IMG/VR virus record: IMGVR_UViG_3300021197_001653
Location: 1 to 64,000 of that record
Direction: 5' to 3' (one strand)
DNA: 64,000 nt
DNA from: a virus
The notes below the pieces were generated by a model. It was not told the origin of the DNA. It did not search any database and saw nothing but the letters and a program-made list of their open reading frames with translations. Shown piece after piece: positions 43,858 through 63,527 of the stretch. The position numbers were made by a program, and so were the translations under genes. Numbering within the stretch: the stretch's first letter is position 1; every line of letters begins with the position of its first letter.

Positions 43858-45738
43858 ATGAAAAATAAATATTTAAATGAATTTAATGAAGGTGGAAAAC
43901 ACTCTCAAAATCCTTTAGGTGGGATACCTCAAGGAATTGGTAGTAATGGTAAGCCTAATTTAGTTGAACAAGGTGAGACATCCTTTGATAGTAAAAATGG
44001 TAAATACATTTTTAGCGACAGTTTAGAAACAAATGACATTATGAAAATAGATTTAATTAGCGAGTTTAATTTACCTAAATATATTAAGGGTAAATCTTTT
44101 TCTGAAGCTAGCAAAGCTATTAATAATAAGTTTAAAGATAGAAATGATAAAGCGTCTTTAAATACACAAAAAGAATTATTAAATAGACTTACAGAAGCCC
44201 AAGAATATACTAAAATGCAGAAAGCATTAAAAAATAATTCACAAGAGGTACCTGATAATATGAATGGGGTTGTTCCGGAAGGGATGAATCAATTCAATGA
44301 AGGTGGTTTTTCTAATTTTATAAAAGAAAATGGTGAAGGTATTGCTTCTGCTGGAAGCGGGGCATTAAAGATGATTGGTAATTTAAGTGGCGAGGGTGTT
44401 TCAACTAATGCTGCATCTGCTGGATTATCTGGGGCTGCTGAAGGTGCAATGGCTGGAGCTGCTTTAGGTCCATTAGGAGCTATTGGAGGAGGTATATTAG
44501 GAGGTGTAACAAGTTTAATTGGATCTGGTAAAGCTAAAAAAGAGCTTTTAGAGAAAAATATGAATGATACACAAGGTTTTAGAAATGACAAATTAAATAC
44601 ATTTAAGTATGGTGGTAGTTTAAGATCTAATAAATATGCATTAGGAGGTCAAATAGATCCTAATGATAGTAGAATTCCTGAATATGCCCAAGGTGATAAA
44701 AGATTTGAAGGTGTGCCATTTAGAAGTAATAGGTACGAAAGGTTATTATCTGATATAAAGAAAAAACATAATACTTCAATTGATACAAGTGGTGTAAGTG
44801 ATTTATATAGAGCGGCACCATTAGCTAAATCAGTACAAGGTGGTTCACCAAGTGCATTAGGAACATATAGAGATTTACTTATGAAAGGTCGTAAAGGTAG
44901 ACCAGAAACAACCCCTATTACAGAAGCTGATATGAAATTAGATCTTTTAAAGGGTATTAATAGCACAACATCTAATTCATTTAGAAATGGTGGATCTATA
45001 TCATCATTAAAACCATTAACAACAAAAGAAGATTTACAATTTAGAGCTAATCCTTTAGATAATTTAAATACACCCACTTTACAAGGTAGACCATCCCCTG
45101 AATTACCAAAAGAACAAAGTAATTTTAGAAAACTATTAGGTCAAGGAGCTAGTTATTTAAAAGATAATGCACCTAAATTAGCAAGGTTAGCTCCTGTAGC
45201 TACGAATGCATTACAATTATCTAACTTAAAAAGACCTCAACATGAATCTTTAAATAGATTAAATACTAGATATAAAAGAGATTTAGTAGATGAGAAGACT
45301 TTACAAAATTTAGTTAATGAACAATACGGCGGTACAGCTGAAAAACTTGCTAATGCAGCAGGTGGCTCAACAAGTGGGTTGAGAGCTAGTTTATTAGGAG
45401 CTCAATTAAACAAATCAAAAGCTTTATCAGATGCTTTTTCAAGAGCTGATCAAAATAATAGATCTGAAAATGAATTATCTCAAAAATTTAATTTAGGTGT
45501 TGATAAAATTAATTTACAACAAGATAATTTAGAAGGTGATATAAATGCTAAGAATAGAGGATCATTTGAAAGTAATAAGTCTAAATTAATATCCCAACTT
45601 GGTACTGATGTGGGTCGTATTGGTAAAGAAGCTAGTCAAATGGCATCAGTAGCTAAAATGTTTGGTTATACTTGGGATGGTAAATTCATGAGAGATAAGA
45701 AAGGTAAAATAATTAACCTTAATAAAGGAACTAAATAA
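43858..45738 (+). CDS. ejected cargo protein 1 (glycine-zipper TM)
   Basis: GGKHSQNPLGGI..VEQGET N-terminal domain; GAMAGAALGPLGAIGGGILGG; no Cys. Confidence 0.75.
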   Translation: MKNKYLNEFNEGGKHSQNPLGGIPQGIGSNGKPNLVEQGETSFDSKNGKYIFSDSLETNDIMKIDLISEFNLPKYIKGKSFSEASKAINNKFKDRNDKASLNTQKELLNRLTEAQEYTKMQKALKNNSQEVPDNMNGVVPEGMNQFNEGGFSNFIKENGEGIASAGSGALKMIGNLSGEGVSTNAASAGLSGAAEGAMAGAALGPLGAIGGGILGGVTSLIGSGKAKKELLEKNMNDTQGFRNDKLNTFKYGGSLRSNKYALGGQIDPNDSRIPEYAQGDKRFEGVPFRSNRYERLLSDIKKKHNTSIDTSGVSDLYRAAPLAKSVQGGSPSALGTYRDLLMKGRKGRPETTPITEADMKLDLLKGINSTTSNSFRNGGSISSLKPLTTKEDLQFRANPLDNLNTPTLQGRPSPELPKEQSNFRKLLGQGASYLKDNAPKLARLAPVATNALQLSNLKRPQHESLNRLNTRYKRDLVDEKTLQNLVNEQYGGTAEKLANAAGGSTSGLRASLLGAQLNKSKALSDAFSRADQNNRSENELSQKFNLGVDKINLQQDNLEGDINAKNRGSFESNKSKLISQLGTDVGRIGKEASQMASVAKMFGYTWDGKFMRDKKGKIINLNKGTK

Positions 45739-47549
45739 TGGCTAATAGATATACAAATATAACAACTTCTCAATATGATCCTATGTCGTTACAGGAATTA
45801 ATGGCTGCTCCATCTTATTTAAGGAAGCAACATGATGATTTAGAATCACAAGCTAGTAAATTAGGAATAATTGATTCTAATAGATTGGATGTAGATAATG
45901 AGTTAGTTACAGGGGAAATAGGTAAATTTGAAGAAGGTGTAGGTTCTTATGTAGATCAATTAGCTACAGAAGGTTTTAATCCTACTAGCAAAAGAGGTTT
46001 ATATAAACTAGCTAAACAAAGAAGAGATTTATTATCACCTGAAGGTTCAATAGGTAAAGCAAAAAAAAGTTATGATGCTCATGCTAAAAATAAACAGGTT
46101 CTTTCTAAAATGTATCAAAGTGGTAAAATTAGTAAAGATAAATATGAATTAGGTATAGCTAAATCATTACAAGATTATACTAATACTGGTGGTATTGCTA
46201 ATCAAGGTGTTTATAATGACTTTAATGCAGTTAAGGATACGGATGTTATTGAGAAGGCCAGAAAGGTAGCTTTAGATATACAAAGGAATCCTAAAATATT
46301 AGAATCATTTGGTCTTATAAAAAAAGGTGATAGATATTATGATATTAAAACTAGAAAAGAATATACTCAACAAGGAGCTATAAAATTTGGAATTAAAAAT
46401 ACATTAGCGTTAGATCAAGATGTAATGTCTGATTTAAATCAGAGAGAACAATTAGGAATGCTTGGTGATAATACAGCTAGTGATTATTTAAATACATTAG
46501 GGTCTTTAGATGAAGTAATATACTCTAAAAATAAACAAACACAAACTAGACGTGGTTTCTTTGATCCTTTGGAAATAGCCGCTAAGAAGAAAGCATTAGA
46601 TAAAGCATACGAGACTAAAAATGTTGATTTTGAAGGGTTTGTTACTGGAAAACAAGTAATATATGATGAAGATTCAATAAATGATTTACAAAGGATAGTA
46701 AGTGGTAAGACACAAATTGATGAAACTAAATATGTAAATCATGGTGATGCATCTTTCTTATCAGCAATAGCAGATATATTTTCAGGTAAAGCACCAAAAA
46801 AACCTATAGTATTTAAGGAATTAAGTGGTGAATTAAAAACTAAAACTGAAAATATATTTAATGGTTTAAAAAGAACAGGTGTGCTTAGTGAAAATGCGTT
46901 AATAAATGATAAAGCTACACTTAAAGCTGTTGTAAATTATATGCAAAATAACCAAGCTGTTGTAATACAACCAAATCTTATTAAACATGGTGATGTGCTT
47001 AAATCTGAAAAAATTGGTAAAGACATTATTAATAATGCTTCTAGTAGAGAGTTTTATAATACTAAAACTGGTAAAATAATGACATATGAAGATATGATAG
47101 ATAAAGGTTACCTTACTGCTGAGAAAAATGATAATTATAAAGCTACAACATATAGAGGTAGTTTAGGTGCAGATAATATGTATTCATTAAAAGTTCCTGC
47201 ACATGCAAGAGCTGGTTATATTACACCACATGTACTAAATATAAAAGGTCAAGAGTTTTTAGTTCCTGGTAGTAGATCTCAATTAAATAGTCAGAAACAT
47301 TTAATGGATTCTAAATTTAATAGAGTATTCCAAAAATTAGCTACTCAACCTGGTTTACCAACCAATTTTCAATGGAAAGATCCACGTAATCAAAAAATTA
47401 GAGACGTTGAAATAATGAGATTATCTAAAACGAGTGAAGAATATCAAAAATATGGAGCACCTTACTTAATGAATATAGATGGTGTTTTAAAACCAATTAG
47501 CGAAGGTATTTTTAGAAGAATGCAAGCTGATTTAAATATGCAAAACTAA
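45738..47549 (+). CDS. ejected cargo protein 2
   Basis: MANRY...YDPMSLQEL start; no Cys; synteny. Confidence 0.7.
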   Translation: MANRYTNITTSQYDPMSLQELMAAPSYLRKQHDDLESQASKLGIIDSNRLDVDNELVTGEIGKFEEGVGSYVDQLATEGFNPTSKRGLYKLAKQRRDLLSPEGSIGKAKKSYDAHAKNKQVLSKMYQSGKISKDKYELGIAKSLQDYTNTGGIANQGVYNDFNAVKDTDVIEKARKVALDIQRNPKILESFGLIKKGDRYYDIKTRKEYTQQGAIKFGIKNTLALDQDVMSDLNQREQLGMLGDNTASDYLNTLGSLDEVIYSKNKQTQTRRGFFDPLEIAAKKKALDKAYETKNVDFEGFVTGKQVIYDEDSINDLQRIVSGKTQIDETKYVNHGDASFLSAIADIFSGKAPKKPIVFKELSGELKTKTENIFNGLKRTGVLSENALINDKATLKAVVNYMQNNQAVVIQPNLIKHGDVLKSEKIGKDIINNASSREFYNTKTGKIMTYEDMIDKGYLTAEKNDNYKATTYRGSLGADNMYSLKVPAHARAGYITPHVLNIKGQEFLVPGSRSQLNSQKHLMDSKFNRVFQKLATQPGLPTNFQWKDPRNQKIRDVEIMRLSKTSEEYQKYGAPYLMNIDGVLKPISEGIFRRMQADLNMQN

Positions 47550-50500
47550 TGGAAGATGAATTTGACATAGAAAATTTATACCCTGAATTAGACCCAGCTA
47601 CATTATCTAACCCAGATAATGTTTCTTCTATTATACAATATAATAGTAAACTTGGGGAATCTCAATATGATGATGGGTTTTTAGCACACTTACATCAAGA
47701 TGAAGGTGATATAGATACCGCTTTAAATTCATATAGAGCTAGTAAACAATCTGGTTGGGATCAATTAGGTAATTCATTAGGTAGACTTACTAATATTATA
47801 CCAGAAGCTATTGGTGGGATTGCATCAGCATTTGATTTTGAAGATTATTTTAATTCTAATCAGGAAGTTGGTAACTGGTTAACTACAATGATGGATGAAT
47901 GGAAAGAAACTACAACTGAAGCTTTACCAATATATAGAGAAAATCCTGGTAAGTCATTAGATTTTGGTGATTCAGGATGGTGGTTTGAAAACGGTTCATC
48001 TTTAGTTAATTCTATAGGTGGATTTGCTATATCTGGTGGTGTTATAACCAAAGGGTTAGGTGGTTTAAGTAAACTTTCTAGAGTTGATAAGCTAGCTAAA
48101 ATGATAGGGGGAGTAAATAAAGCTAATAAAGTAGGTCAAGTTGCTCAAACAGCTACTACAGCTACAATGCTTAACCAAGCTGAATCTATAATGGAAGCTA
48201 CCCAAGTATTTGATTCAACATATAAATTTGAATTTGATAAATTAAGTGCTGCTAATGATCCAGATGCTGAATCTAAAGCTAAACAAAAAGCTGCTGATGC
48301 CGCTAAATTAACTATTAATGCTAATAGAGCTAATATAATTTTAAATTTATCATCTGCTAATTTATTTTTAAAAGCACCTAAATTAACAAGCAATATACTT
48401 AAAAAGGAAACATTTAGAAGTAATTTAACTAGAGGTGGTGTTGAAGGTGTTCAAGAATCAGCTGAGGAAGTTATAAATTTAATAGCTGGTGATATAGGTA
48501 GAGCTTTTGGTGAAGATAAAGATTATAGTTTAAGTGCGGTATTAAATAATTTAAATGCAGCTGAAGCTACTGAAGCAGCCTTATTAGGTTTTATAGGTGG
48601 TATGGGTCAAACTGTTATCACAAAAGAAGGTGTTAATAGACTTAATAAAACTATTGATCCTGATACAGGTGAAAAAATATCAGTTAGAGATTATAATAAA
48701 AAACAATATGATCAACAACAAGAAATAATACAAGAATATGATGATAATGCTAAGGAAAATAATATTAAAACATTTACAAATGCATTTGATAGTATAAAAG
48801 ATAATTTGATATTACAAAAAGCTTATAAAAAAGCTATTAAAAATGAAGATAATGAAGAGGCTCAGAGACTAGCTAATTTAACATTAGGTGTCCAATCATT
48901 TCATGCTTTTAAAAATGGTACTACTGAAAACCTTATTAAATTATACGAAGAATTAAAAAAAGGCCCTCAGAAAGAGGGAATGGGTGAAGATTATAAAGAA
49001 AAAGCTTCTGCTGCTATTTCTAATATTAAAAAATTAGAAAAATACTATAATTTTTCACAAGAATTTGCTAATAATAAAGAGGTATATCTTAATAGGAACA
49101 TAGATGTAGAATTAACTAATGAACTTAATAATTATAATAATTTATTAACAGAAAAAGAAGGTGATTTAAATAGTAAAATAGAGCATAAGTTAAAATATAA
49201 GAGATATGCTAAATTAAACTTTCATCCTCAAGATAGACCTAAAATAAGCCCAACTCCTGTTACTGCTAGTGATTTAGATACTGAAACAGAAAATGTTTTA
49301 AAAAATAAGTTTAAATCTACTATAAAGAAGTTACCTGAGTATAAAGCCTATGTTGATACTCAAAATAAGATTGATGATATATTATCTAAAATTGATAAAA
49401 ATGACAATGATTTTAATAAAATAACATCTGATAAGTATCAAACATCTTACAAAAAGAAGATTGAATCTATTGATAAAGCTATTAAAAATTCTATTGATAA
49501 ACAACAAGCTAAAGTAGAAAAAGAAATTAAAACAGAAGAAGCGGAAGCAATTAAAGAGGAAGAAAAAGCTGTTAGAGCAGAAAAAGTTACTACCCAAGCA
49601 GTTGATGCTGAAACAGAAAATATTACAAATGATGTGCATAAAGCAGTCTCTAACTTAAAACCATATGATATTTTTACTATACCTGAAAGCCTTAGTGCTA
49701 CACATGCAGGTAAACAATTTTATTTAGATGGTAGTTCATCAACAGATGATATAAAAGTATTAAAAGATACTAATACTGGAAGTAATATTATTATTGAAGT
49801 ACCTACTTATAAGAAAACTCAAGCTAATAATTATGATATAGATGATTATGCTACATCTGAAGGTGGTGATATTAATAGAGTAGTTACAAATAATGAAAAT
49901 ACTTTAGATACTAATCCTGATAAAATAGGTAATGGTTCTAAATTAATAAGTACTGATAATAAAGGTAAAGCGTTTGATTTTATCAAAAAAGATTATGCAG
50001 CTTATTTAGATTATGAAAAAGAACCTATTGATAAGATTGGAACTATTGTAAAGTTCAGTTTAAATACAAACGATTTAAAGAATCCTAAATGGACAAAGGC
50101 TACGGCATTATATAAAAAAGGTATTAATACCTTAAATGATACTGAAATTGAATATTTAATAGATTATTTACCAATTGATGCTGTACTTACAGATAAAATT
50201 AAGGCTCCTATTGAAACTATACCTACTACTGAACAAGATCCAGTTAGATATATCAACAGTTCTAGAATATTAAGAAAGAATATTATTAACGAATTAATGA
50301 ATGGTAAATCTCTTAATGAGCTTAATACAACTATTGAAGGTCAATATGAAGGTGTTTTAAAAGTTGATGAAAAAGTTGATGGTAAGGTTCTTGAAAACTC
50401 CATAATGGACTTACATTTCTTAAAAGGTAAAAGTAAGGCTGATAAAATTAAAACAATTAAAGAAAATATAGGTGTTGTTAATGATAATGGTGATATTACA

Positions 50501-51715
50501 TTTGTAAATGGTGCAAAAGTACCAATGAAAGTTAGTTCTAAAGGTGAATTTTACTTAAGAATGCCAATGGCAAACGGTAAACCTTTCTATTTAAAACTAA
50601 ATAGTAAGAAAATATCTATTGATCATGCTTCATTATTACATGATTTATATTCTGTTAGAATAAATGATACTGACTTAACTAAATCTACAAGAATTAATGA
50701 GTTAGAACCATCACTAGCATCTAAAATTAATAATGTTTTAAAAGATGAGGTTAATCTTATAGGGACTAAAGGTGATTTAACAATAAAAGATGTTATTGAC
50801 TTTTTAGTATGGGATGGGGCTAAGTCAATTAAATCTAGAATTAAATTAGAAGGTACTGGAACTGAAGGAGGAAGGCAATTTATATATGGTAATCCTGGTT
50901 TAAATGGTGCTATAGTTAATAAAGGTGAGGTTATTAATAAAGAAAATTTTACTAATTGGCTAACTTCTGATAAAAGATATTCAATATCATTTAAACCTAA
51001 GAAAGGTCAACAATCTAAAGCTAGTATATCTATAAATGATAAATATTTAGAATACTTATTAGATAATAAAATATTAAATACAAACGCTGTTGTTGGTGAG
51101 AATAATCCAACTTTTCAAGGTTTTACAACAATTTACTTAAATAGTAATGGTATAGAGAAATCCAAAGTATCGCCAAAGTTTGATTCTAAAGTAGATGGTG
51201 ATTCTGATGATTTAGTTAGTAGAATTGTAGGTTCAAATACTTATCTTGCATCTATTAAAAGTGGTAGGCTGTTTTCAGTAAATAAAAATATTGAATCTCT
51301 TCATACTAGAATAATGAGTAATGCAGAACTAGTTAGTAGTGTAGTTAAAGATAATAAGATAATAGATCAATTTGAAAAAGAAAATAATGCGGATGACTCA
51401 TTTGATTTATTTCAAGATAGAGTTCTTGTAAGTTTAACTAGATATAGTGCACCAACTCCTAATTTAAAAGAAAAACTTGAAATTAAAGAAGTACAAAAAA
51501 AGAAAGAGAAAATAATACCTAAAGATGAAGTTAATGTTTCTGATAGATTAATACAAGATTTAACAATACATTTAGCAACAGCAGGATTACTTAGATTAGA
51601 TAAACAGTTTGAAAAAACATCTAAGAAAGGTAATAAAGCATTATTTGAATATTTAAAAAATATAGCTGATTCTAATAAAGAAGATATAGCTGCAATTATT
51701 AAAAAATGCCAATAA
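47549..51715 (+). CDS. large virion cargo protein preceding the RNAP
   Basis: 1388 aa; Gly/Ala-rich hydrophobic helices and EGVQESAEE motif; immediately upstream of RNAP. Confidence 0.75.
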   Translation: MEDEFDIENLYPELDPATLSNPDNVSSIIQYNSKLGESQYDDGFLAHLHQDEGDIDTALNSYRASKQSGWDQLGNSLGRLTNIIPEAIGGIASAFDFEDYFNSNQEVGNWLTTMMDEWKETTTEALPIYRENPGKSLDFGDSGWWFENGSSLVNSIGGFAISGGVITKGLGGLSKLSRVDKLAKMIGGVNKANKVGQVAQTATTATMLNQAESIMEATQVFDSTYKFEFDKLSAANDPDAESKAKQKAADAAKLTINANRANIILNLSSANLFLKAPKLTSNILKKETFRSNLTRGGVEGVQESAEEVINLIAGDIGRAFGEDKDYSLSAVLNNLNAAEATEAALLGFIGGMGQTVITKEGVNRLNKTIDPDTGEKISVRDYNKKQYDQQQEIIQEYDDNAKENNIKTFTNAFDSIKDNLILQKAYKKAIKNEDNEEAQRLANLTLGVQSFHAFKNGTTENLIKLYEELKKGPQKEGMGEDYKEKASAAISNIKKLEKYYNFSQEFANNKEVYLNRNIDVELTNELNNYNNLLTEKEGDLNSKIEHKLKYKRYAKLNFHPQDRPKISPTPVTASDLDTETENVLKNKFKSTIKKLPEYKAYVDTQNKIDDILSKIDKNDNDFNKITSDKYQTSYKKKIESIDKAIKNSIDKQQAKVEKEIKTEEAEAIKEEEKAVRAEKVTTQAVDAETENITNDVHKAVSNLKPYDIFTIPESLSATHAGKQFYLDGSSSTDDIKVLKDTNTGSNIIIEVPTYKKTQANNYDIDDYATSEGGDINRVVTNNENTLDTNPDKIGNGSKLISTDNKGKAFDFIKKDYAAYLDYEKEPIDKIGTIVKFSLNTNDLKNPKWTKATALYKKGINTLNDTEIEYLIDYLPIDAVLTDKIKAPIETIPTTEQDPVRYINSSRILRKNIINELMNGKSLNELNTTIEGQYEGVLKVDEKVDGKVLENSIMDLHFLKGKSKADKIKTIKENIGVVNDNGDITFVNGAKVPMKVSSKGEFYLRMPMANGKPFYLKLNSKKISIDHASLLHDLYSVRINDTDLTKSTRINELEPSLASKINNVLKDEVNLIGTKGDLTIKDVIDFLVWDGAKSIKSRIKLEGTGTEGGRQFIYGNPGLNGAIVNKGEVINKENFTNWLTSDKRYSISFKPKKGQQSKASISINDKYLEYLLDNKILNTNAVVGENNPTFQGFTTIYLNSNGIEKSKVSPKFDSKVDGDSDDLVSRIVGSNTYLASIKSGRLFSVNKNIESLHTRIMSNAELVSSVVKDNKIIDQFEKENNADDSFDLFQDRVLVSLTRYSAPTPNLKEKLEIKEVQKKKEKIIPKDEVNVSDRLIQDLTIHLATAGLLRLDKQFEKTSKKGNKALFEYLKNIADSNKEDIAAIIKKCQ

Positions 51716-51718
51716 AAT

Positions 51719-54700
51719 ATGGGAAAAATATGTAATAGACTTGCTGTAACTAATAACCAGCATTCAGAACTATTTAATACTTTACTTAGTATTGCTAATA
51801 ACAATGAAGAGTTAGCAGATGAGTATTATGCTTTTTTTAAGAGTGAAAGATTTATTAATGATTTTGGTGATTATCAAGATCAATATACTAATTTTGATGC
51901 TGCTAATTTAAAAATTAGTGAAAAAAGATTAGATATTAATCATGAACCTAAGTTATTTCTTGATAAAAAATATAATAGTTATTACTATAAGAATAAACAT
52001 CATAAAAAAGTATATTACCCTAGTAGTACTAGAAATTTAAATGTATATTATTCAAGTGAAGCTATTGACTCTATATCTAAAATTTTAGCATTAGACTTTT
52101 TAAAACCAAGAATAGGTGATGATTTTAATGATTTAAATCTAAATAAAGAAAAAGGTAGATTAATAGATAGTATTAAAAATAAATTAGAGTCTAAAATTAA
52201 AGAACTTAAATCAGGCCCTAGTATTATAGAAAAAACTAAAGGTGGGGTATTAGAATTAACATTACCTCACTTAAATGAATGGGTTAAGAATGTTGAAGAT
52301 TATTATAAATCTATTAATTTAAACTACGTTGAAACAACTGAACAAGATGATGTTGATGAAGATACATCAGCCCCTGGTCATGCATATGGGTTATCTTCTT
52401 TTGAAAAGAATTCAAAAGATAATGTTACGAGTAATATAAAACTTAGACTTTCTTTATTGCAACATGGGACAGAGGTGGATTATTTATTTTATGAACCTAT
52501 ATTAATATCTTTTGATGAAGTCAATAGTTCTTTACAGAAAACTTTAACTAATAGTATTGCTTTAATGAAAAATGGTCAACAAGAAGACTTGTTTGAAATA
52601 TATAAGCAAGAGATACATACATTATCATTAAAAAAACCTTATTTAAAATCTTTAACAGCTCAATTAGATAATATTACTGATATTAATTTAAAGTCTCAAT
52701 TTGTAAGAGCATTTAATCTAGATAAAAATAATTTTATAGGTACAATATATGATATAACTAAAGACAATATTATTGTAGATGTATTAAATTTATCTGATGT
52801 TGGCTCTAAAACCAATATGGTTAAAAATAACTGGACATATTCTTTTATTAAAACTGTATCAAATTCTAATCTTGAGATTGATGAGGCATCTATTACTAAG
52901 ATAAATGATATAGAATCTGCTTTTAAAGGATTTTATGGTGATAAAAATAGTGGTTTTAGAAAAGATGTATATAAAGGTACTGTAAACCTAGAAAGGGCTA
53001 GTGATGAAATTAGAAATATATTAAATGACTTAGGTATAAATACAACTGAAAATGGATTTAATCATTATTTAGATGGTTTAGAAACTAGTACAGCTGATAA
53101 AGATTTAAGAATAGAAAACTTAAGTAATTTATTATCTAGTGTTAATTATTTATTTAAGAGTTTAAAAACTATAACTACTAAGAATTATAAAGATATTTTA
53201 AATAGTCAGAATGAAATAACAAACTTAGCTAAGGCTGAGTCATTCTTTATTTCAGAAGGTTCTGACGCATCTATATTTTCAGTAGGTAAATCTAAATGGG
53301 TTTATTCTAACCCTTCTTACTTATCTAATAAGGTAAAAGAATGGAATAAGGATATTACATATTTAGATAATCATTTCAATGCTAGTGAATTTAATAAAGG
53401 TTCTCATTATATGTCTACCATGTTAAACACTCCTAGTTTAGTTAAAAATCTTACTTTAAATGTATTTAATTCACTGCAAGTAAAAAATGACGCTGTCAAT
53501 GCTAGTGATGGTAAAACATTATCTAAGAATGATGCACTTGCAGATTCATATAATAAAATATTAGGTTATAAAAAACCAGGTGGGAAGTCTTATTTTAATA
53601 CTCCTACACCAGCAGATAAATCAACTCAATATCAAATAGGTATTCCTAATGAGCTAATGGTGGAAACTAATGCTTCATTTGATAGAGATACTAATCAAGT
53701 TGTTATAAATGATTCAGCTTATGAAATATTAGTAAGCTATATTGTATCTGAACATAATAGAATGAGAAAAGTTCAGAAGGAGATTGATTCTGGTACAACT
53801 ACAATGATAGAGCATTACCATATAGGTAGAAAGAATGGTATTAAGTTTCAAAGTATTCCTGAATTAAACCATGATAATTTTAAAAACTTAGGTTTTAATT
53901 TTGAACTATATGGTGAGAGTGGAGAAGTTTTAGATATTGATTTAACTGTTGAAGCTAAAGCTCAAATTAAAGAATATATTAAAGATATAGTATCTAAAAA
54001 CATTAAAGTTTTTTATGATACATTATTTGATAAGAAGTTGTTATCATATAATGCAGATGGTGTGATTATCAATAAAGGTATTGACAGTAGTATATGGTCT
54101 TCATATGATTCTAGATTTAGACCATTAAAGGTTGCGTCAGATATATTTATAAATGGTTTAATATCTCAGATAGAATATTCTAAAATGTTCTCTGGTGATG
54201 TAGCTTATTATAAAAATGCAGATGATTATAAGAAAAGAATACCTGCTACATATACAGATGGGTTGCAGTTATACACGCAATCATATGATAACCCTGTTGA
54301 TCAAAATAAAGAAAATTATTTTAACATTGCTGTTATCAATAATGTAGTAGTAAAAACACCTTATTATGAAGAATTAGTAAAATTAGTAGGTGAAGATATA
54401 GCTAGTAAATATTCTGACATTAACTCTACTGATGCACAAGCATGGATTACTCCTGAAAGATGGAAGTTTTTAATGGTAAGGTTAGGTAAATGGTCAAATG
54501 TACATGATTCAATTTATGACAAGTTTAATAACCCAAATGCTGAATATACTTCTACTGAATTAAAACAAGTAGCACAACCCTTAAAAGGTGTGTATTTTGA
54601 GATTAATAATGGTGTACCTGTTTACTTAAAGTATTCACAAGCTGTATTAGTTCCTAATATGGTTAGAAATAATAAAGGGTTGCAGACATTAGTTAATAAA

Positions 54701-57700
54701 ATGAAGGATGCTGATATACAAGAACTTATTACAATTGATGGTGTAAAAGTTGGTGCAGCAAAACCTGTTAAAACTCATACTGATGAAGGTATTGTTTTAA
54801 ATAACTTTGAATTAACACCATATCAATTAAAGAATAGTGGTTGGAAACTTCAACAAGATTTACCTATTAAGACATTCAAGTTAACTGAAGTAGGTTCTCA
54901 GATTCAAAAGAATATATATGCTGGTTTATCAAGTAATTTAGATAAAACATTTGATGTTAATGATATTGAAATGAGTGGTTCTGAATTAATAGAATACATT
55001 AATAATATAGTAGCTCAATTATCTAATAAAGGTAAGGATAGATTCACAAAGGAATTTGATGTTGATGATAATAATAAAATCAATAATATAGACGCTCTTA
55101 CTGATACACTATTAGATGAATTAAAAACTAGAGGTGCTTCTAAAAATGTCATACAAGCATTAGAAAGTGGTATTACCCCTTATGCTATACCTGGATATCA
55201 GCAAAAAATACAGAATGTATTTGCATCTATTGTATTAAAGAGATTAGTTAAAATTAAGACTAATGGTGGTTCATTTATTCAGATGTCTAACTATGGTTTA
55301 AATAAAGATGAAGCTGATAATAAAGGTGTTATATGGACTCCATGGGCTAAGGAAACTACACATGAATATGAGGTTATAGGTGAAAAGAATGGTAGACAGA
55401 TAATTAGACCTGCTGGTATGTTAATCAGTGGTAGTTTAATAGCTAAATATATACCTAACTATAAGAAATATAGTACTGCTCAATTATTTGGAACAAAAGA
55501 GAATGATTATAAAGATGCAATGATAGATAAGAGAATTCTAGATTCAATAATAGGATATAGAATACCTAATCAGCATTTAGCGTCTAATGATGCATTAGAG
55601 GTTGTTGGTATATTACCAGAAGAAATGGGTGATACTGTTATTGCTTATACAGGTATTACAACTAAGACTGGTAGTGATTTTGATATTGATAAGATGTATC
55701 TAATGATTCCTTCAATTAAAGCTATAAGAAAAGATGGTGACGTATCTAAATTAAAGTATGTAGAAGATGAAGGTCTTAGTTTGGAAGATCAATCATTAGC
55801 TCAGTTACAAAATAGTTTAATTCAAGCTTATAAGGCTGTTATATTAAATGAAAATGTGATTGAAGATGTAATGACACCCATTGATTTTGATTTTATTAAA
55901 GATGATATATTAGATTTATTTCCTAAAGATCCTATTGAAGCATATGATACATTTAATATCAATAAAGATGTAGATTTAAAATATGAATTTATGGCTGGAA
56001 ACGCTGGTATTGGTCAAACTGCAAATATGCTAGTTGATCATAACAGAGGGTTAATGGCTGATATATATTTAAATGATACTGATATTGGAATGGGTTTTAA
56101 AAATGATAAAGGTTTCACTACATTTGACACAGAATACTCTGAAGTATTAAATGAAATAAAAGACCCTAAATTAAAAAGTATTAAAGTAGCACATTCTTTA
56201 TCTGCAATAATGAATGGTTACGTTGATATAGCTAAAGATTCATATATAACAAGAGGTAACTGGACTACACAAACAGCTAATGTTGGATTTATGTTAATAA
56301 GAGCTGGTGTACATCCATTTAAGGTGAATGCTTTATTAGGACAACCTATTATTAGAGAGTATGTTGATTTTATAACTAACTCAGAATCTAAGATAATTAA
56401 TGAAACTAGTAATATTAAAGATAAGTTTAAACAAGAACAAATAAGAAAATTATTAGAAAACGATACATCAATAATTACAATTAATGGTATATCATTAACT
56501 AAACGTAAGATATATAAATTAGTAGATAGTAAACCAACCCTTAATAAATTAGCTACAATATTTAAATTAAAAGAAGCTGATGAAGAAGTGTTAGATTTAT
56601 ATAAGCATTTAAAGTCATTAGATAAATTATTTGAAGATACTAAATCTGCTAATGCTAGTAACTTATCATTAAAAGATCTTAGATACAATGTAAAGAATCC
56701 TAAGTCTGCTAAGTTACAACCTGAGATATTAAATTGGTTCTATGAATTAGTAGATAACTCTAAGAAACTAGTGGAGAACATTAATGCATCTAAAGTTGAT
56801 GTGAATGGTTACGGTAAGAATATTGGATCTTTAATTGTTACAACTAATCTAATAAATAAATTATTAAATGAGAAAGAAAGTGGTAGTTTTATGGGGTATG
56901 CTTCAAAGCTTCATTATAATAATGAACCAACAATACTAGGGGCTTATACTGAGAATTCAGTTAATTATATTAAAGATGTAATGCAAGCTAATCCATTATT
57001 TTTTGCTACGGCTAATCAGTCAATAATTAATACATTTAATGATATTTCTAAGAGTATTACTAATGAAAATTTAATGAATCCTAAACTAGCTGATAAATTA
57101 GAAAAAGATTTTTATTCATATTTATTAAGTGGTTTTGAACCATTAAAAACTAGCCAAGAAGAGAAAGAAGATTTAATAAATAATTTACCTGATAGATTAA
57201 TGGCTTATTCTAAAGAAAATGAAAACTTATTCATAAAAGAATTAGATATTAAATTAGGGGATGATAGTATTTTTTATATTACAATGAATAATAAGAAAAA
57301 AACTCCTGAATATCAAACTGAATTAACAAATGCATGGTTAGATTTAATAGTTGAAAATAAAAAATTAGGTAATGATTTAATTAAATATTCTTATTTAACA
57401 TCTGGATTTAAAATGAATATAAATCAGTTTTATACTTATATACCATATCAATTCTTTGCTGAAGGGCATATAGATGAGTATATTAATGAAACATTATTTG
57501 AGTTGAGTAATTCAGATATATCAGATAAACAATTTAGTACACAATTCTTTTCTCATAATATTACTGATTACCAACTTGTAGGTAAAATACATGGTAGTCA
57601 ATTGAATAAAAAAGGATTATCTAATCCAGCAGGTGTTATTTTAGAACCTAATGAAAACTTCAAAGGTGTTAAAGAATATTATGTATATGAAGTTAGTAGT

Positions 57701-58141
57701 GAAGTTGAAGGTAAAATAAAGAAAAGAACATTATTATTTAAACTATTAGGTTATGATAAAGATAATGCAGCTATTTTAAAAAGAGTACCTGTTCATGGTA
57801 AGAAAGATTCAAAAGGACATAGGATAGTAGAATGGTCATTTGGTAATGAAATAACTACAAAAGACAATGATATATTAATACAACCTACCACTGAAAATTT
57901 ACTTGAATTAGAAAACCAAATAGATGAAAGATATAATCCTGATAAAACCAAAGAAGATGATTTTGAAAATATGTCTGATTTAGATGAGAATATAACACAA
58001 GAAGTAAAAGAATTATGGGCTTTTCATTCCAAAGTAATATTAGAGAAACATAGTAATGTTACTATACAAGATTTCGCTGATATTGTAAATAAGAATGATA
58101 AGGAAGAAGTAGAAAACTGGATAAAAAATTGTTATGAGTAA
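51719..58141 (+). CDS. virion-packaged single-chain two-barrel RNA polymerase (phi14:2 gp66-like)
   Basis: 2140 aa; YRIPNQ and catalytic GSDFDIDK; TDAQAWI, QPLKG, LKYS, VKVG, YVDIAKD. Confidence 0.93.
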   Translation: MGKICNRLAVTNNQHSELFNTLLSIANNNEELADEYYAFFKSERFINDFGDYQDQYTNFDAANLKISEKRLDINHEPKLFLDKKYNSYYYKNKHHKKVYYPSSTRNLNVYYSSEAIDSISKILALDFLKPRIGDDFNDLNLNKEKGRLIDSIKNKLESKIKELKSGPSIIEKTKGGVLELTLPHLNEWVKNVEDYYKSINLNYVETTEQDDVDEDTSAPGHAYGLSSFEKNSKDNVTSNIKLRLSLLQHGTEVDYLFYEPILISFDEVNSSLQKTLTNSIALMKNGQQEDLFEIYKQEIHTLSLKKPYLKSLTAQLDNITDINLKSQFVRAFNLDKNNFIGTIYDITKDNIIVDVLNLSDVGSKTNMVKNNWTYSFIKTVSNSNLEIDEASITKINDIESAFKGFYGDKNSGFRKDVYKGTVNLERASDEIRNILNDLGINTTENGFNHYLDGLETSTADKDLRIENLSNLLSSVNYLFKSLKTITTKNYKDILNSQNEITNLAKAESFFISEGSDASIFSVGKSKWVYSNPSYLSNKVKEWNKDITYLDNHFNASEFNKGSHYMSTMLNTPSLVKNLTLNVFNSLQVKNDAVNASDGKTLSKNDALADSYNKILGYKKPGGKSYFNTPTPADKSTQYQIGIPNELMVETNASFDRDTNQVVINDSAYEILVSYIVSEHNRMRKVQKEIDSGTTTMIEHYHIGRKNGIKFQSIPELNHDNFKNLGFNFELYGESGEVLDIDLTVEAKAQIKEYIKDIVSKNIKVFYDTLFDKKLLSYNADGVIINKGIDSSIWSSYDSRFRPLKVASDIFINGLISQIEYSKMFSGDVAYYKNADDYKKRIPATYTDGLQLYTQSYDNPVDQNKENYFNIAVINNVVVKTPYYEELVKLVGEDIASKYSDINSTDAQAWITPERWKFLMVRLGKWSNVHDSIYDKFNNPNAEYTSTELKQVAQPLKGVYFEINNGVPVYLKYSQAVLVPNMVRNNKGLQTLVNKMKDADIQELITIDGVKVGAAKPVKTHTDEGIVLNNFELTPYQLKNSGWKLQQDLPIKTFKLTEVGSQIQKNIYAGLSSNLDKTFDVNDIEMSGSELIEYINNIVAQLSNKGKDRFTKEFDVDDNNKINNIDALTDTLLDELKTRGASKNVIQALESGITPYAIPGYQQKIQNVFASIVLKRLVKIKTNGGSFIQMSNYGLNKDEADNKGVIWTPWAKETTHEYEVIGEKNGRQIIRPAGMLISGSLIAKYIPNYKKYSTAQLFGTKENDYKDAMIDKRILDSIIGYRIPNQHLASNDALEVVGILPEEMGDTVIAYTGITTKTGSDFDIDKMYLMIPSIKAIRKDGDVSKLKYVEDEGLSLEDQSLAQLQNSLIQAYKAVILNENVIEDVMTPIDFDFIKDDILDLFPKDPIEAYDTFNINKDVDLKYEFMAGNAGIGQTANMLVDHNRGLMADIYLNDTDIGMGFKNDKGFTTFDTEYSEVLNEIKDPKLKSIKVAHSLSAIMNGYVDIAKDSYITRGNWTTQTANVGFMLIRAGVHPFKVNALLGQPIIREYVDFITNSESKIINETSNIKDKFKQEQIRKLLENDTSIITINGISLTKRKIYKLVDSKPTLNKLATIFKLKEADEEVLDLYKHLKSLDKLFEDTKSANASNLSLKDLRYNVKNPKSAKLQPEILNWFYELVDNSKKLVENINASKVDVNGYGKNIGSLIVTTNLINKLLNEKESGSFMGYASKLHYNNEPTILGAYTENSVNYIKDVMQANPLFFATANQSIINTFNDISKSITNENLMNPKLADKLEKDFYSYLLSGFEPLKTSQEEKEDLINNLPDRLMAYSKENENLFIKELDIKLGDDSIFYITMNNKKKTPEYQTELTNAWLDLIVENKKLGNDLIKYSYLTSGFKMNINQFYTYIPYQFFAEGHIDEYINETLFELSNSDISDKQFSTQFFSHNITDYQLVGKIHGSQLNKKGLSNPAGVILEPNENFKGVKEYYVYEVSSEVEGKIKKRTLLFKLLGYDKDNAAILKRVPVHGKKDSKGHRIVEWSFGNEITTKDNDILIQPTTENLLELENQIDERYNPDKTKEDDFENMSDLDENITQEVKELWAFHSKVILEKHSNVTIQDFADIVNKNDKEEVENWIKNCYE

Positions 58142-61100
58142 GATAAGTTGTATAAATATAAATAATAAGGAATATAAGGCTTTAGTAGAGGATAGTAATC
58201 TATCACCTATTGTAGTTGAATTTAAGATTGCTAAATGGCAAAGTGAGACAGGTTTAGACAGGTTTCCTTCTAAAGATGAATTAATGTCTTTTGATGGGGT
58301 TAGTTATAATTTAAAAGCTGTAGATATATTATCTTCTGATAAGGCTATACAAGTCTTTAAAAAGGGTAATAAGAACAACTGGGAGTTATCTAAAATTCTT
58401 ACAGAGCTTCAAATACCTAAAGAGCAGAAACAACTTATATTAGATAAGGGTTTGACTAATAAAGATGAAATCATATTAGCTTTATTAGCTGATAATAGTT
58501 TTGCTGTTGAAATTAATATTGCTACTACTAAATCAGCTAATAGTGTGGATGATTATGATACAGCCTATGAGCAGCAGTATGGTCAAGGAGATATTGTAGG
58601 AAGTAATACACAGCATTACTCAAATTTAACAGTTCCAGGTGGTATTAATTATACAGAAAATGAAATATCTACACCTGCTATAACACCTAATATTAAAGGT
58701 CATGCTCAATTTAGTACTAATCAAGGTATCGGATGGTTTAGGAGCGATGAACAAAAAGAAGATTCTAATTTAAGTATAGAAAAAGGACGTTTAATAGATA
58801 ATAAAATTTATACTAAAACTCGTAGAATACTAGAATTACAATCTGATTTATTTCAGAAAGGTAGAGATTCTAAGTTATTAGTTGGTGAGAGGTCAATAGA
58901 TGGAGGTGGTACATTTAATATAAAAGATCATGAATACAAAAGAAGTATAAATGGTGAATTTAGTGTAAGATCACCTGAAGATGGTTCTGATACTGTTGAA
59001 GATGGTGGTATTGTAGTAATAAAAAATATTTCAGAATCAGAATATTTTGATGCATTAAGAACATTAAATAATACTAATGAAGATAATCAATTTCTACAAC
59101 TTTTAAATAAAAAAGGTAATTGGGTTAATTTCTTTATTCAATCTATAGTACAAGATAGTATTAAGAAAGGTTATAAAAAAGTATTATTTCCTACAGGTAA
59201 TACTGCTGCTACTGTTGAAGGTCATACTACTATAGCTGATGATATAAAGAATACAAATAAAATAATAAAGATATTAGAAGATAATAAAGTAGAAAAAAAT
59301 CCTGATGTTGAATCACCTAGGCAAGCTTATAGATTTAAAATAAGTGAACATAATGATTATAACTATGCCGCAACACAATCTGAAGCTGAAGGAGATAGAA
59401 AAGCTAAAATTGATTACTTAAAATATAGAAATAAAGAAAGAAAAGAACAAGGTGTTGAAAAACTTGCTCCAATTGAAGCTTTTTATAATAATAAAGTAAC
59501 GAGAACACTTGATAAACTATATGCAGTAAATAAAATTACTGATAAATATGGTAACACTTGGAATGAAATAGATTTATCTCAAGATATAAGTCAAACGATA
59601 TTATTAAAAGATTTATTAAATGAGAATATAAAAGATAGAGTATTTGAAAATAACGTTACAACCCCTACATTTAATAATGATCCTAATTTAAGAGGTGATT
59701 TTGTAAAGACTATGAGGTTATTATTTAACAATAAGACATCTAATGTAATGGCTACAGATGTTTTAGAGAACATATTGAATAATTTTGAGGATATATCTGA
59801 TATATCTAAACCAGTATTGGAAAAGGTCTTAAAAAAACTACAGGTAACTAATGCTAAGGTTCTATTTGTTGGTCAAAGTAAAATGGCTACTGAAGGAGCT
59901 GTAATGCAATATAACCCTCATGATAAGACAATTAGAGTTTCTAAGAAGTTTTTAACAGGATTAGATCCTAAATTTTTAAGTAGAGTGTTTATACATGAGG
60001 TAGTGCATAGTGTAACCCACCATGTAATAACCAAACCTACCACAATGGAAGATAAGATATTTGGTGATTTCATCAAGAAGTCTTATGACTACTATAAATC
60101 TAAAATAGACAATGCGGATTCATATAACGGTTTCAAAAATATTGATGAGTTTATGGCTGATTTCTTTACTGATAAGGATTTTGCTAATAAAATTAAAGAA
60201 GTTGATAAGAAAAATAAAAATAAATCGTTTTTATCAAAATTAATATCATATCTTAAAACATTATTTGGTATAAATAAAAATGAAACTCCTGCTTATAATA
60301 AAGTAATGGATTCTATTTTATCTAATGCTAAAGTTGATGTATTAAACAAGAATTGGAATGATGTTGTTTTTGAAAAGAACATAACTGAAATTCCTGCTTA
60401 CTACAAGTTAGGTAGTATTGATAAAAAATTAAATTATTTTATTGATGGTATTAAAGATAATTTAGAAGAAAATATTAGAAATTATGATAATCTTATAAAG
60501 AAAGTTAAAAAACCTCAATCAATTAAATTATATAACGATAAACTAAAAGAATTATTATTTCATATTAATGAATTGGATGAAGGTAATAAATGGCAAGGTA
60601 TTTCTTTATTTGTAAATCAAATGAATAATAGTATTAATTCTCTTAAAGCAAAACTTCATACTGAAAACTTTCAAAATAAAGATGTAGTAACTACTATTAA
60701 TCTATATAATAAGTATTTAGAATCATATGATATTATTGAAGATATAAGACAATTTCTATCCGACACTAAAGCAGAAATTAAAACTGGTAAAGAAAATATT
60801 CCAGTTACTCTTGAAGATATTATAGCAATAAATGATGTATTAGAAGAAGCTAGTGGTCAATATAATGGTTTAAAAGGTGATGTATTTTCATATCTTAAAA
60901 AAGCATTCATTGAAAAGTATAATAAAAAAGAATATGCTACTGAAGTATTATATAAATATAGAAAGAAGCTAGGTAAACAATATAAAGATTTAAAGATTAC
61001 AGAATCTAAAAAATCTTGGGTTGCTAAACAAATGAATGGTCCTTATAAAGAAGAGATTGCTCAAAAAGTAAAAGAACATGTAACTGGTATTGTAGAAGAT

Positions 61101-63527
61101 CATGCATTTGATATAACAACAGCTACTGCTGTAATGAATACTAGTATTAATACTAATTCAAAGTTAGTTCAGATGTTACATAATTTAATTGCTAAAACTA
61201 GAGATGTAATTATAACAAAAACTAGAAAGAAGGATTTAGATTTAATTTCATTACATGATAAATTTATTAAAGATAAAGGTAATAAAAAACCTTCTGCTTT
61301 ATATAGTGAATTAATTGAGTATGATAAGGTTAGCGATAATTATTATCTAAAAGGTGAATATTCAATTAAGTTTAAACAAGAACATGATAAACAATTTAAT
61401 AAATATATTGAAGAACTTAAAGAAATTGCAACCAATAAAGGTACTAATTCTGATGAATATAAATATTACTTTGATAATTCTAATTTTAACAAATGGTTAA
61501 AAGATAATGTTGTTAAACAAGGTGATGTAGAAAGACCTTCTAATAAATGGAAAAATGATTTATCTAAGTTGTCTAATATAGAAAAACAAGTATTAAATGA
61601 ATTTACAAGTATTATTAAAGATACACAAAAGAAAACATTTAAAATAAATAGTTTAATTTCTAGACCTTTAAAAGGTGCTGTATATATGAAGTTACCATCT
61701 ATTACTAAGAAGGATTTAGAAAGAGCTCTAGAAGGTAATATAAAGGGTTTTTATAAAGACAAAATAAAAGATTTAACAAAAGTTAGAGTTGATGATATTG
61801 GTTATGAAACTAAACTAGTTAAAATGAATAATAAACCACTTAATAATGTTAAGATTAATTTTAGAGGTGATTTATCTAGTGACCAACAATCTTTAGACCT
61901 ATTTACTATAATGGCTTTGGAATATAAAAATGGTATTAATTATGAAGAAAAACATAAACTTGAAAATGATGCCCATATATTAAAAGAAATAGCTAAAAAT
62001 AAGAAATATTATGTTACATCTGCCGCTAGTAGGGTTCCAATTTTAGGAGCTCATATAAAGAGAAATAAAAGACTTATACAAGATGGTTCTACGAGTAATA
62101 CTTATAAAAGAATTAATAGCCTTATAGAGTCTAATGTATATGATATTTTACATAAAAATTCTGGTAAAATAGGTAAATACGATGTAAATAAAATTATTGG
62201 ATTTGTAAATGGATGGACGGGTGCTGTTGGTATGACATTAAATGAAGTTACAGCTACAGCCAATGTATTAAATGGTAAAGCTCAATTATTTTTAGAAGCT
62301 ATATCAGGTTCACATATTAAAGCTAAATCTATTGCTAAAGCTGAGAAATTATATTTTAGTAATTTAGGAGAAATCGTAAAGGATATAAAATCACCAGTTA
62401 AAAGATCATTTACTAATCAACTTACTGAAATGTTTGATACATTTGGTACAGTTAGTGTAGGTCAAAAACAAGCATTTATTAAAAACACAATGATAAAAGC
62501 TATTGGAAACTTTGGGTCTGGTCAATTTATGCAAGATTCAGGTGAACATTGGATGCAATCTGTATTAACAATGGGTGTTTTAGATAGTGTAAAAGTAATG
62601 AATTCAGATCATAACTTTATTGATAAAAATGGTAAAGTGGTTAAAACTGAAAAAGAAGCTGCTTCATTATTAGATATGATATCATTAGTAAATGGTGAAT
62701 TAAAAGTTAGTAAAAAATTCTTATATACATCTCATACACCTAATGTAGCATATAATGAAGGTGGTAAAGAATTAATAGATAAGTTTCTTAAAAAGAAAAT
62801 ATTTGATACAATGGGAGCGTATGATGTTAATATGCAACCTGAAGCTCAAAGACATGCTTTTGGTAAATTAACTTTAATGTATCGTAAATTCTTAGTTCCA
62901 ATGGGTGTAGCTAGATATAGAGGGTTTAGTACATTTAATAAATCATATGATGAGTTAAGACCAGAACAAAAATTTTTCTCAGAAGCATTACAAGAATATG
63001 AAGAAGGTTATTATACTTCAGCATTAAGATTTGTAAGTACAACTGCTTTACCTGCTCTAAAAGAACTTAATTATAAAATAATAAAAGAAAACTGGAGTGA
63101 ACTTACTGATTATCAGAAGAAGAATATTCATAAAGCAGTTACAGAAGTAGTTATTACAGCTGTCTTATTACCTTTATTATCTATAATATTACAATCAATG
63201 GCAGATGATACTGAAGATGATGAATTTTTATATTTTTTATTATTAGAATTTAGAAGATTAGAATCTGAATTGTCATCATATAGAAATTTAAGTGAGCAAT
63301 GGAGAATATTAGAGTCACCAATTCCTTCAGCAAGAATGGTTCAAAACTCAAGTAAACTTATACTTAGATTAATCAATCCTAGTCAATGGGGTGAAAGGTA
63401 TAAATCAGGTACAAATAAAAATATGTTTAGAATAAAAAGGGAAGTTGAAAGATTAACACCAATTTTAAATTCAAGAAGTATTACTTATAAAGATAAATAT
63501 AATTATATGTTAAAAATGGTGCAATAG
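58134..63527 (+). CDS. large polyvalent virion cargo protein with zincin metallopeptidase domain
   Basis: 1797 aa; FIHEVVH...DEFMAD zincin motif; N-terminal PGGINY..H..R..ELQSD domain; hydrophobic segment near C-terminus. Confidence 0.8.
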   Translation: MSKISCININNKEYKALVEDSNLSPIVVEFKIAKWQSETGLDRFPSKDELMSFDGVSYNLKAVDILSSDKAIQVFKKGNKNNWELSKILTELQIPKEQKQLILDKGLTNKDEIILALLADNSFAVEINIATTKSANSVDDYDTAYEQQYGQGDIVGSNTQHYSNLTVPGGINYTENEISTPAITPNIKGHAQFSTNQGIGWFRSDEQKEDSNLSIEKGRLIDNKIYTKTRRILELQSDLFQKGRDSKLLVGERSIDGGGTFNIKDHEYKRSINGEFSVRSPEDGSDTVEDGGIVVIKNISESEYFDALRTLNNTNEDNQFLQLLNKKGNWVNFFIQSIVQDSIKKGYKKVLFPTGNTAATVEGHTTIADDIKNTNKIIKILEDNKVEKNPDVESPRQAYRFKISEHNDYNYAATQSEAEGDRKAKIDYLKYRNKERKEQGVEKLAPIEAFYNNKVTRTLDKLYAVNKITDKYGNTWNEIDLSQDISQTILLKDLLNENIKDRVFENNVTTPTFNNDPNLRGDFVKTMRLLFNNKTSNVMATDVLENILNNFEDISDISKPVLEKVLKKLQVTNAKVLFVGQSKMATEGAVMQYNPHDKTIRVSKKFLTGLDPKFLSRVFIHEVVHSVTHHVITKPTTMEDKIFGDFIKKSYDYYKSKIDNADSYNGFKNIDEFMADFFTDKDFANKIKEVDKKNKNKSFLSKLISYLKTLFGINKNETPAYNKVMDSILSNAKVDVLNKNWNDVVFEKNITEIPAYYKLGSIDKKLNYFIDGIKDNLEENIRNYDNLIKKVKKPQSIKLYNDKLKELLFHINELDEGNKWQGISLFVNQMNNSINSLKAKLHTENFQNKDVVTTINLYNKYLESYDIIEDIRQFLSDTKAEIKTGKENIPVTLEDIIAINDVLEEASGQYNGLKGDVFSYLKKAFIEKYNKKEYATEVLYKYRKKLGKQYKDLKITESKKSWVAKQMNGPYKEEIAQKVKEHVTGIVEDHAFDITTATAVMNTSINTNSKLVQMLHNLIAKTRDVIITKTRKKDLDLISLHDKFIKDKGNKKPSALYSELIEYDKVSDNYYLKGEYSIKFKQEHDKQFNKYIEELKEIATNKGTNSDEYKYYFDNSNFNKWLKDNVVKQGDVERPSNKWKNDLSKLSNIEKQVLNEFTSIIKDTQKKTFKINSLISRPLKGAVYMKLPSITKKDLERALEGNIKGFYKDKIKDLTKVRVDDIGYETKLVKMNNKPLNNVKINFRGDLSSDQQSLDLFTIMALEYKNGINYEEKHKLENDAHILKEIAKNKKYYVTSAASRVPILGAHIKRNKRLIQDGSTSNTYKRINSLIESNVYDILHKNSGKIGKYDVNKIIGFVNGWTGAVGMTLNEVTATANVLNGKAQLFLEAISGSHIKAKSIAKAEKLYFSNLGEIVKDIKSPVKRSFTNQLTEMFDTFGTVSVGQKQAFIKNTMIKAIGNFGSGQFMQDSGEHWMQSVLTMGVLDSVKVMNSDHNFIDKNGKVVKTEKEAASLLDMISLVNGELKVSKKFLYTSHTPNVAYNEGGKELIDKFLKKKIFDTMGAYDVNMQPEAQRHAFGKLTLMYRKFLVPMGVARYRGFSTFNKSYDELRPEQKFFSEALQEYEEGYYTSALRFVSTTALPALKELNYKIIKENWSELTDYQKKNIHKAVTEVVITAVLLPLLSIILQSMADDTEDDEFLYFLLLEFRRLESELSSYRNLSEQWRILESPIPSARMVQNSSKLILRLINPSQWGERYKSGTNKNMFRIKREVERLTPILNSRSITYKDKYNYMLKMVQ

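Follow-up and report, generated by a model that had tools for sequence, protein, structure and literature searches.

Paired terminal cysteines in the cargo proteins of a marine crAss-like phage and a probable head-to-tail chain in place of a polyprotein

The cargo block and the placement of its cysteines

The stretch of DNA analyzed here (64,000 nucleotides, positions 1 to 64,000 of the IMG/VR virus record IMGVR_UViG_3300021197_001653, hereafter the window) lies within a complete 104-kb virus record and carries the cargo block of a marine crAss-like phage, in which three giant proteins, designated A, B and C, bear cysteines only at the ends that face one another. According to six-frame open reading frame (ORF) listing and translation, the block includes five consecutive plus-strand cargo ORFs with a total of 6,554 residues. 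The last three encode protein A (47549..51715, + strand, 1388 residues), counterpart of phi14:2 gp67 and crAss001 gp47; protein B, the virion RNA polymerase (51719..58141, + strand, 2140 residues); and protein C (58134..63527, + strand, 1797 residues), counterpart of phi14:2 gp65 and crAss001 gp49. A and C would be the first and last links of the chain proposed below. The closest cultured relative was Cellulophaga phage phi14:2, whose gp66 is 38% identical to B over the matched core; B matched the structure of that protein (PDB 6VR4) in phmmer (E = 1e-225), the model of its C-terminal segment matched the same entry in Foldseek (E = 4e-7), and the DFDID catalytic motif of two-barrel RNA polymerases is found at B residues 1320-1324 (55676..55690, + strand). 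The trio proteins of phi14:2 and crAss001 are packed in virions, as determined by mass spectrometry (PMC10172136; bioRxiv 10.1101/2020.03.07.982082), and by analogy with these counterparts A, B and C of the window are probably virion-packed, ejected proteins.

Only four cysteines were found in the five cargo ORFs, none of them internal to the 5,325 residues of A, B and C. Protein A has Cys1387 alone, its second-to-last residue (codon TGC, 51707..51709, + strand; ..IIKKCQ, stop); B has Cys5 (TGT, 51731..51733, + strand; MGKIC..) and Cys2138, third from the end (TGT, 58130..58132, + strand; ..WIKNCYE, stop); and C has Cys6 alone (TGT, 58149..58151, + strand; MSKISC..). For B Cys5 and C Cys6, no upstream ATG codon is available other than the start of the respective ORF. 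The first-pass annotation, a reading of the sequence made beforehand, was exact in its ORFs, cysteine counts and cysteine positions, and its claim that a cysteine faces a cysteine at every internal junction, with none at the outer ends (A N-terminus and C C-terminus), holds in the window. The non-cargo ORFs of the window contain 68 cysteines in 11,854 residues (0.57%), a rate at which 30.5 would be expected in A, B and C and 37.6 in all five cargo proteins (Poisson P(<=4) = 4e-12). Given one, two and one cysteines per protein, the chance that all fall within 6 residues of junction-facing ends is approximately 2e-10, and no other ORF of at least 100 residues in the window has all its cysteines at its termini. 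A, B and C are thus purged of cysteine like other phage ejection proteins, with the exception of their junction-facing ends.

The gene order (muzzle, cargo 1, cargo 2, A, B, C) is that of the crassvirus cargo block, based on Pfam and blastp assignments. The muzzle protein (39725..43699, + strand, 1324 residues; Pfam crAss_MUZ, E = 2e-195), which is not ejected and serves here as context, contains six internal cysteines. Cargo protein 1 (43858..45738, + strand, 626 residues; Pfam crAss_CARG1, E = 4e-22) and cargo protein 2 (45738..47549, + strand, 603 residues; assigned by position and by blastp to the C2 ORFs of relatives) have no cysteine. C includes a zincin-type HEVVH motif at residues 621-625 (59994..60008, + strand), and its residues 574-631 gave a weak Pfam SprT-like match (23.0 bits, just below the 25.6-bit cut-off). 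The A and B genes are separated by 3 nucleotides (TAA AAT ATG, window 51713-51721) and those of B and C overlap by 8 (ATGAGTAA, window 58134-58141), a tight spacing that would fit coupled translation of all three. None of the five cargo proteins was assigned to a PHROGs family, a megablast search with the region found no match among GenBank phages, and ARAGORN detected no tRNA genes in the 64,000-nucleotide window.

Junction cysteines in related loci and at gene fusions

The conservation of the terminal cysteines was evaluated in 80 loci retrieved by an IMG/VR scan with B (22-49% identity), together with the genomes of phi14:2, crAss001, PhiCrAssBcn1, IAS virus and cr118_1; junction counts refer to 77 non-redundant loci with 91 cargo-ORF junctions. 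The A-B-C order, as labelled by blastp, was kept across more than 70 loci and in phi14:2. Cysteines were present on both facing ends at 87 of the 91 junctions, mostly within the last 1-4 residues on the C-terminal side and at position 3 (53 junctions), 4 (18) or 5 (11) on the N-terminal side, with the window, at 5 and 6, departing from the usual position 3. No cysteine was found within 15 residues of the outer ends (0/37 A N-termini and 0/63 C C-termini). In alignments of 300-residue ends, the sole invariant column was the cysteine in the A C-terminus, the B C-terminus and the C N-terminus, while mean column identity of the three alignments was 11-14%. Most of the departures from the rule have an explanation: one locus (L041) is a frameshifted copy of an intact one (L042), and in another (L046) the cysteine lies 18 residues from the end.

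The two cultured phages have trios homologous to A-B-C, in the same order and with the same placement of cysteines. In phi14:2, gp67 ends in Cys1797 (its last residue), gp66 has Cys3 and Cys2179, and gp65 has Cys3. In crAss001, the A counterpart gp47 (2341 residues) has Cys2339 as its sole cysteine and is encoded on the strand opposite to gp50 and gp49; the B counterpart gp50 (2412 residues) has cysteines 5, 1334 and 2404, and gp49 (C) has Cys5 alone. The pair was also kept where the partner genes lie 0.5-6 kb apart, as well as in the gut phage cr118_1 and in amber-recoded loci. Because the pairs persist over kilobase gaps and across opposite strands, a nucleotide-level or translational-coupling origin of the junction cysteines was ruled out.

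Internal cysteines were observed in some of the relatives. Many are tolerated in B and C of a few gut-derived or divergent lineages, namely IAS virus (gp055-gp057, L085), L075, L078 and L079, with 10 in IAS gp056 and 21 in L075, the B-C terminal cysteines being still kept in these lineages, and single extra ones occur in B of crAss001 (gp50, 1334), of a marine clade (L015/L018/L020/L026/L048; 1334 or 1341) and of PhiCrAssBcn1 (1530). In several relatives, homologues of cargo protein 1, which in the window (43858-45738) has none, contain one internal pair spaced by 8-9 residues: 369/378 in L023/L081 (phi14:2 g069), 558/567 in L022, 188/196 in L029 and 390/398 in L082 (crAss001 gp45). At L043 (7361-19355), B is split just after the DFDxD region, with a 1943-residue N-terminal part (Cys 4 and 1656), a 1161-residue ORF with a C-x6-C pair (Cys 353 and 360) and an 871-residue C-terminal part following one another. 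The 871-residue piece has cysteines at both ends (3 and 871), and the nearest cysteine of its upstream partner lies 288 residues from the ORF end. The insertion may be a mobile element.

The relatives include natural fusions of the three genes, and the state of each junction was mapped on a maximum-likelihood tree of the B core (71 rows). Where A and B are split, junction cysteines were present in 47 of 49 cases, and in none of 15 where they are fused (at least 7 parsimony changes); the corresponding figures for B and C were 55 of 55 and none of 10 (at least 2 changes). Altogether, approximately nine independent architecture changes were placed on the tree, all of them in the same direction. 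In loci with B and C fused (L016, L019 and L031) only the A-B pair was left, whereas in those with A and B fused (L037, L040, L044, L050, L053, L063, L071, cr118_1 and the amber-recoded L055/L057, translated with TAG as Q) the only junction-facing cysteines were those of the B-C pair. The A-B-fused proteins had no cysteine within 100 residues of the former junction, and those of L053, L063, cr118_1 and L055/L057 hold 1-6 elsewhere. Where all three are fused (L054, L062, L065, L073, L076 and L077), the resulting proteins of 4.2-5.6 thousand residues (up to 5,639) had no cysteine at all. Sequence homologous to A is present in the fused ORFs and runs colinear with the split A proteins, as in L044, whose residues 65-925 align with residues 65-897 of the L046 A protein (E = 2e-75). 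Both the co-occurrence of terminal cysteines across junctions and their disappearance upon gene fusion had been predicted in the first-pass annotation.

Single A-B-C polyproteins have previously been described in some crAss-like phages (Drobysheva et al., 10.1101/2020.03.07.982082, citing Yutin 2018), and those authors proposed that the polyprotein is cleaved, rather than that separate proteins are joined again (10.1101/2020.03.07.982082). Such polyproteins have the same modules in the same order and no cysteine, while the window has three genes and four terminal cysteines. When B-C-fused proteins were compared with split ones, homology ended 30-80 residues before the B end and restarted 33-75 residues into C, with approximately 105 unrelated linker residues between the two homologous parts in the fused proteins. 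The cysteines therefore sit on poorly conserved tails, and judging from these alignments a bond between them would turn the tails into a linker comparable to that of the fused proteins.

These patterns bear on two alternative explanations. The first is that the arrangement arose by chance, through shared ancestry, or as an artefact of gene calling or gene-junction signals; it can draw on the relatedness of the loci and on the weakness of the independent-pair sign tests (given below). It is nevertheless close to refuted, given the placement probability in the window alone, the cysteine as sole invariant column at such low mean identity, the single direction of the architecture changes, and the persistence of the pattern in non-adjacent and opposite-strand genes. 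The second explanation is that the partner of each junction-facing cysteine is not the neighbouring cargo protein but a third one (from the capsid interior, the portal or an adaptor). Virion structural proteins do carry cysteines, and crassvirus virion tails, including those of crAss001, contain interchain disulfides formed by tail proteins (crAss001 atlas, PMC10172136), but a third partner would leave unexplained both the absence of cysteines from the outer ends (0/100) and the joint loss of both junction cysteines on fusion, and is considered highly improbable.

Anatomy of the ends and comparison with known ejection systems

In AlphaFold2 models, B Cys2138 belonged to the final helix (positions 288-299 of the 300 modelled residues) of a helical tail of lower confidence, and C Cys6 lay in coil immediately ahead of a helical domain predicted with confidence (residues 12-121). 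The predicted complex between the last 300 residues of B and the first 300 of C (44-row alignment for each) gave a score of 0.20, the mark being 0.32, a result that speaks neither for binding nor against it. The helical domain of C (window 58134-59033) had a predicted local distance difference test (pLDDT) value of about 90-98 and shared 45-57% sequence identity with some of the relatives only (L013, L022, L024, L028 and L069), a sequence distribution that suggests a shuffled module.

Each junction end has a single cysteine, never in a CxxC arrangement and with no second cysteine nearby, and histidine is rare in its vicinity (2/78 tails and 8/87 heads). Lysine was enriched at position -2 from the C-terminal cysteine (42% vs. 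9.7% background), as expected for a reactive thiolate. An intein or trans-splicing was ruled out because only 1-6 residues lie beyond each cysteine, and a CaaX-like motif or a lipobox because a signal peptide is lacking and the cysteine mostly occupies the last position or the one before it.

The closest likeness among known systems was found in the pre-ejectosome of cyanopodophage A4 (Anabaena phage A-4L), where cryo-electron microscopy revealed that gp27 inserts its C-terminal helix into gp26 and that Cys1715 of the former is disulfide-bonded to Cys5 of the latter (PNAS 2025, PMC12002296). In the A-4L genome, gp27 (1717 residues) has Cys1715 as its sole cysteine, and the next gene encodes gp26 (1114 residues), whose sole cysteine is Cys5. 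As in the window, the sole cysteine of the upstream protein is near its C-terminus, and the sole or first cysteine of the downstream one near its N-terminus. The two systems differ in that A4 has one cysteine pair and no RNA polymerase, while the window would encode a three-protein chain that includes a polymerase. Nothing is reported in the A4 paper on whether the pair is conserved or tied to gene fusion (PMC12002296). Searches with blastp and phmmer of the window cargo proteins against A-4L gp26-gp29 yielded nothing significant, so that the likeness is one of mechanism and grammar and not of family; similarly, Foldseek found no match in PDB for the model of the C N-terminus, and thus no fold link to A4 gp26.

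The A4 structure is relevant to two further explanations that retain a link between the facing cysteines. In one of them, these bridge a metal ion (e.g. Zn, Cu(I) or Fe), possibly shared by two copies of each pair. In its favour, thiolates bind metals well, a reducing or anoxic environment would be no obstacle, and the covariation data fit any direct tether. It is regarded as unlikely, however, in view of the single cysteine per end without conserved histidine or second cysteine nearby, its frequent position as the very last residue, and the disulfide seen in the A4 structure, which has the same grammar (PMC12002296). In the other, the proteins are packed unlinked and their cysteines pair during or after ejection, e.g. 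by oxidation in the host periplasm, for an envelope-spanning ejectosome or for ordering. Passage through the oxidizing periplasm has been invoked to account for the cysteine suppression of ejection proteins (PMC11445570), and assembly of virions takes place in a reducing compartment; on the other hand, the A4 bond is already present in the virion (PMC12002296), and the fused relatives are continuous before packaging, so continuity in the capsid is at least tolerated. Late pairing is accordingly regarded as unlikely.

Strong suppression of cysteine, as in the window cargo, is also found in the Schitoviridae, which have giant virion RNA polymerases as well: their ejection proteins (N4 gp50 / DEV gp71) contain 0.00075% cysteine vs. 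0.865% in the proteome (PMC11445570). In N4-like phages, however, the polymerase is one polypeptide of the T7-like single-subunit type, in contrast to the two-barrel DFDxD type of the window, and terminal cysteine pairs have not been reported. In T7 (L087), gp15 (747 residues) and gp16 (1318 residues) have no cysteine and gp14 (196 residues) has a single one at position 2; genes 14-16 thus display cysteine suppression without head-to-tail pairs.

A probable head-to-tail chain of cargo proteins

Co-occurrence of the cysteines across junctions, their loss on fusion and the A-4L precedent, taken together, strongly support a head-to-tail tether. A direct tether between the facing termini is very likely, and by analogy with A4 a disulfide is its most probable chemistry. 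The reading as a whole, in which A, B and C are linked head to tail by disulfides into a chain that takes the place of a polyprotein, is assigned a probability of roughly 70%. A would dock through its C-terminal tail on the N-terminus of B, and B in the same way on that of C; interchain disulfides would then form between A Cys1387 and B Cys5 and between B Cys2138 and C Cys6 in the assembled or released virion. The product would be one linear chain of approximately 5,300 residues, leaving stubs no longer than 1-5 residues and functionally equivalent to the single A-B-C polyprotein of some relatives. Such a chain could be packed 1:1:1 and pass through the narrow tail as a single, partly unfolded thread. 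The crAss001 atlas argues that the cargo must partly unfold to exit (PMC10172136). For crassviruses we infer the bond, when it forms and what it does in packaging and ejection; the bond may also set the order of ejection and be reduced in the host. Of the disulfide-linked chain put forward in the first-pass annotation, the tether is therefore what the comparative evidence sustains, the disulfide being retained as its most likely chemistry.

Several observations weigh against this interpretation. The cytoplasm, where phages are assembled, is reducing, and gut crassviruses inhabit anoxic habitats. No gene of the thioredoxin or glutaredoxin families was detected in the 104-kb genome of the phage, and a search of the same genome for the Erv1/Alr family gave no match, but its control matched nowhere either. 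Given the reducing assembly site and no thiol oxidoreductase found, oxidation would have to be spontaneous, in the capsid or after lysis. The natural fully fused forms imply that release by reduction is no general requirement. Independent-pair sign tests gave p values of 0.125 (A-B) and 0.5 (B-C) and have little power, every informative independent pair going the expected way. Finally, a few junctions break the rule: A-B of L058, in an assembly with Ns and frameshifts; the B-B split of L043, where B is interrupted by a 3.5-kb insertion; and gp055-gp056 of IAS virus, where gp056 has no N-terminal cysteine and the record has ambiguous bases. The B-C junction of L058 in fact reads ..KNCL, stop, and then MAKC..

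Since natural polyproteins exist, continuity, and not later separation, appears to be the selected property. A broader proposal is that terminal cysteine pairs constitute a general, convergent joining grammar by which podophages re-create an ejection polyprotein from separate genes, with end pairing encoding chain order, and with bonds that form in the virion and are cleaved in the reducing cytoplasm of the host, so that the virion RNA polymerase would be released and switched on only after delivery. This extension is tentative, and we consider it possible rather than probable.

The crAss001 atlas (PMC10172136) and the phi14:2 polymerase preprint (10.1101/2020.03.07.982082) do not mention the cargo cysteines, and a literature search on cysteines or disulfides of crassvirus cargo found no paper describing the terminal-cysteine rule. 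The first-pass view that such an arrangement was undescribed thus stands for crassviruses and has to be qualified for phage A4, in which one such pair has been seen (PMC12002296).

How a cargo of approximately 0.6 MDa, including an RNA polymerase, is delivered through a narrow tail is an open question in crassviruses, which are the most abundant human gut phages. If true, a covalent chain would explain why split and fused genes can replace one another, by what means a 1:1:1 stoichiometry and an order of ejection could be imposed, and why the cargo proteins are otherwise free of cysteine. The idea is directly testable on two cultured phages, phi14:2 and crAss001, and the cysteine grammar provides a simple sequence rule for recognizing chained ejection proteins in the genomes of uncultured phages.

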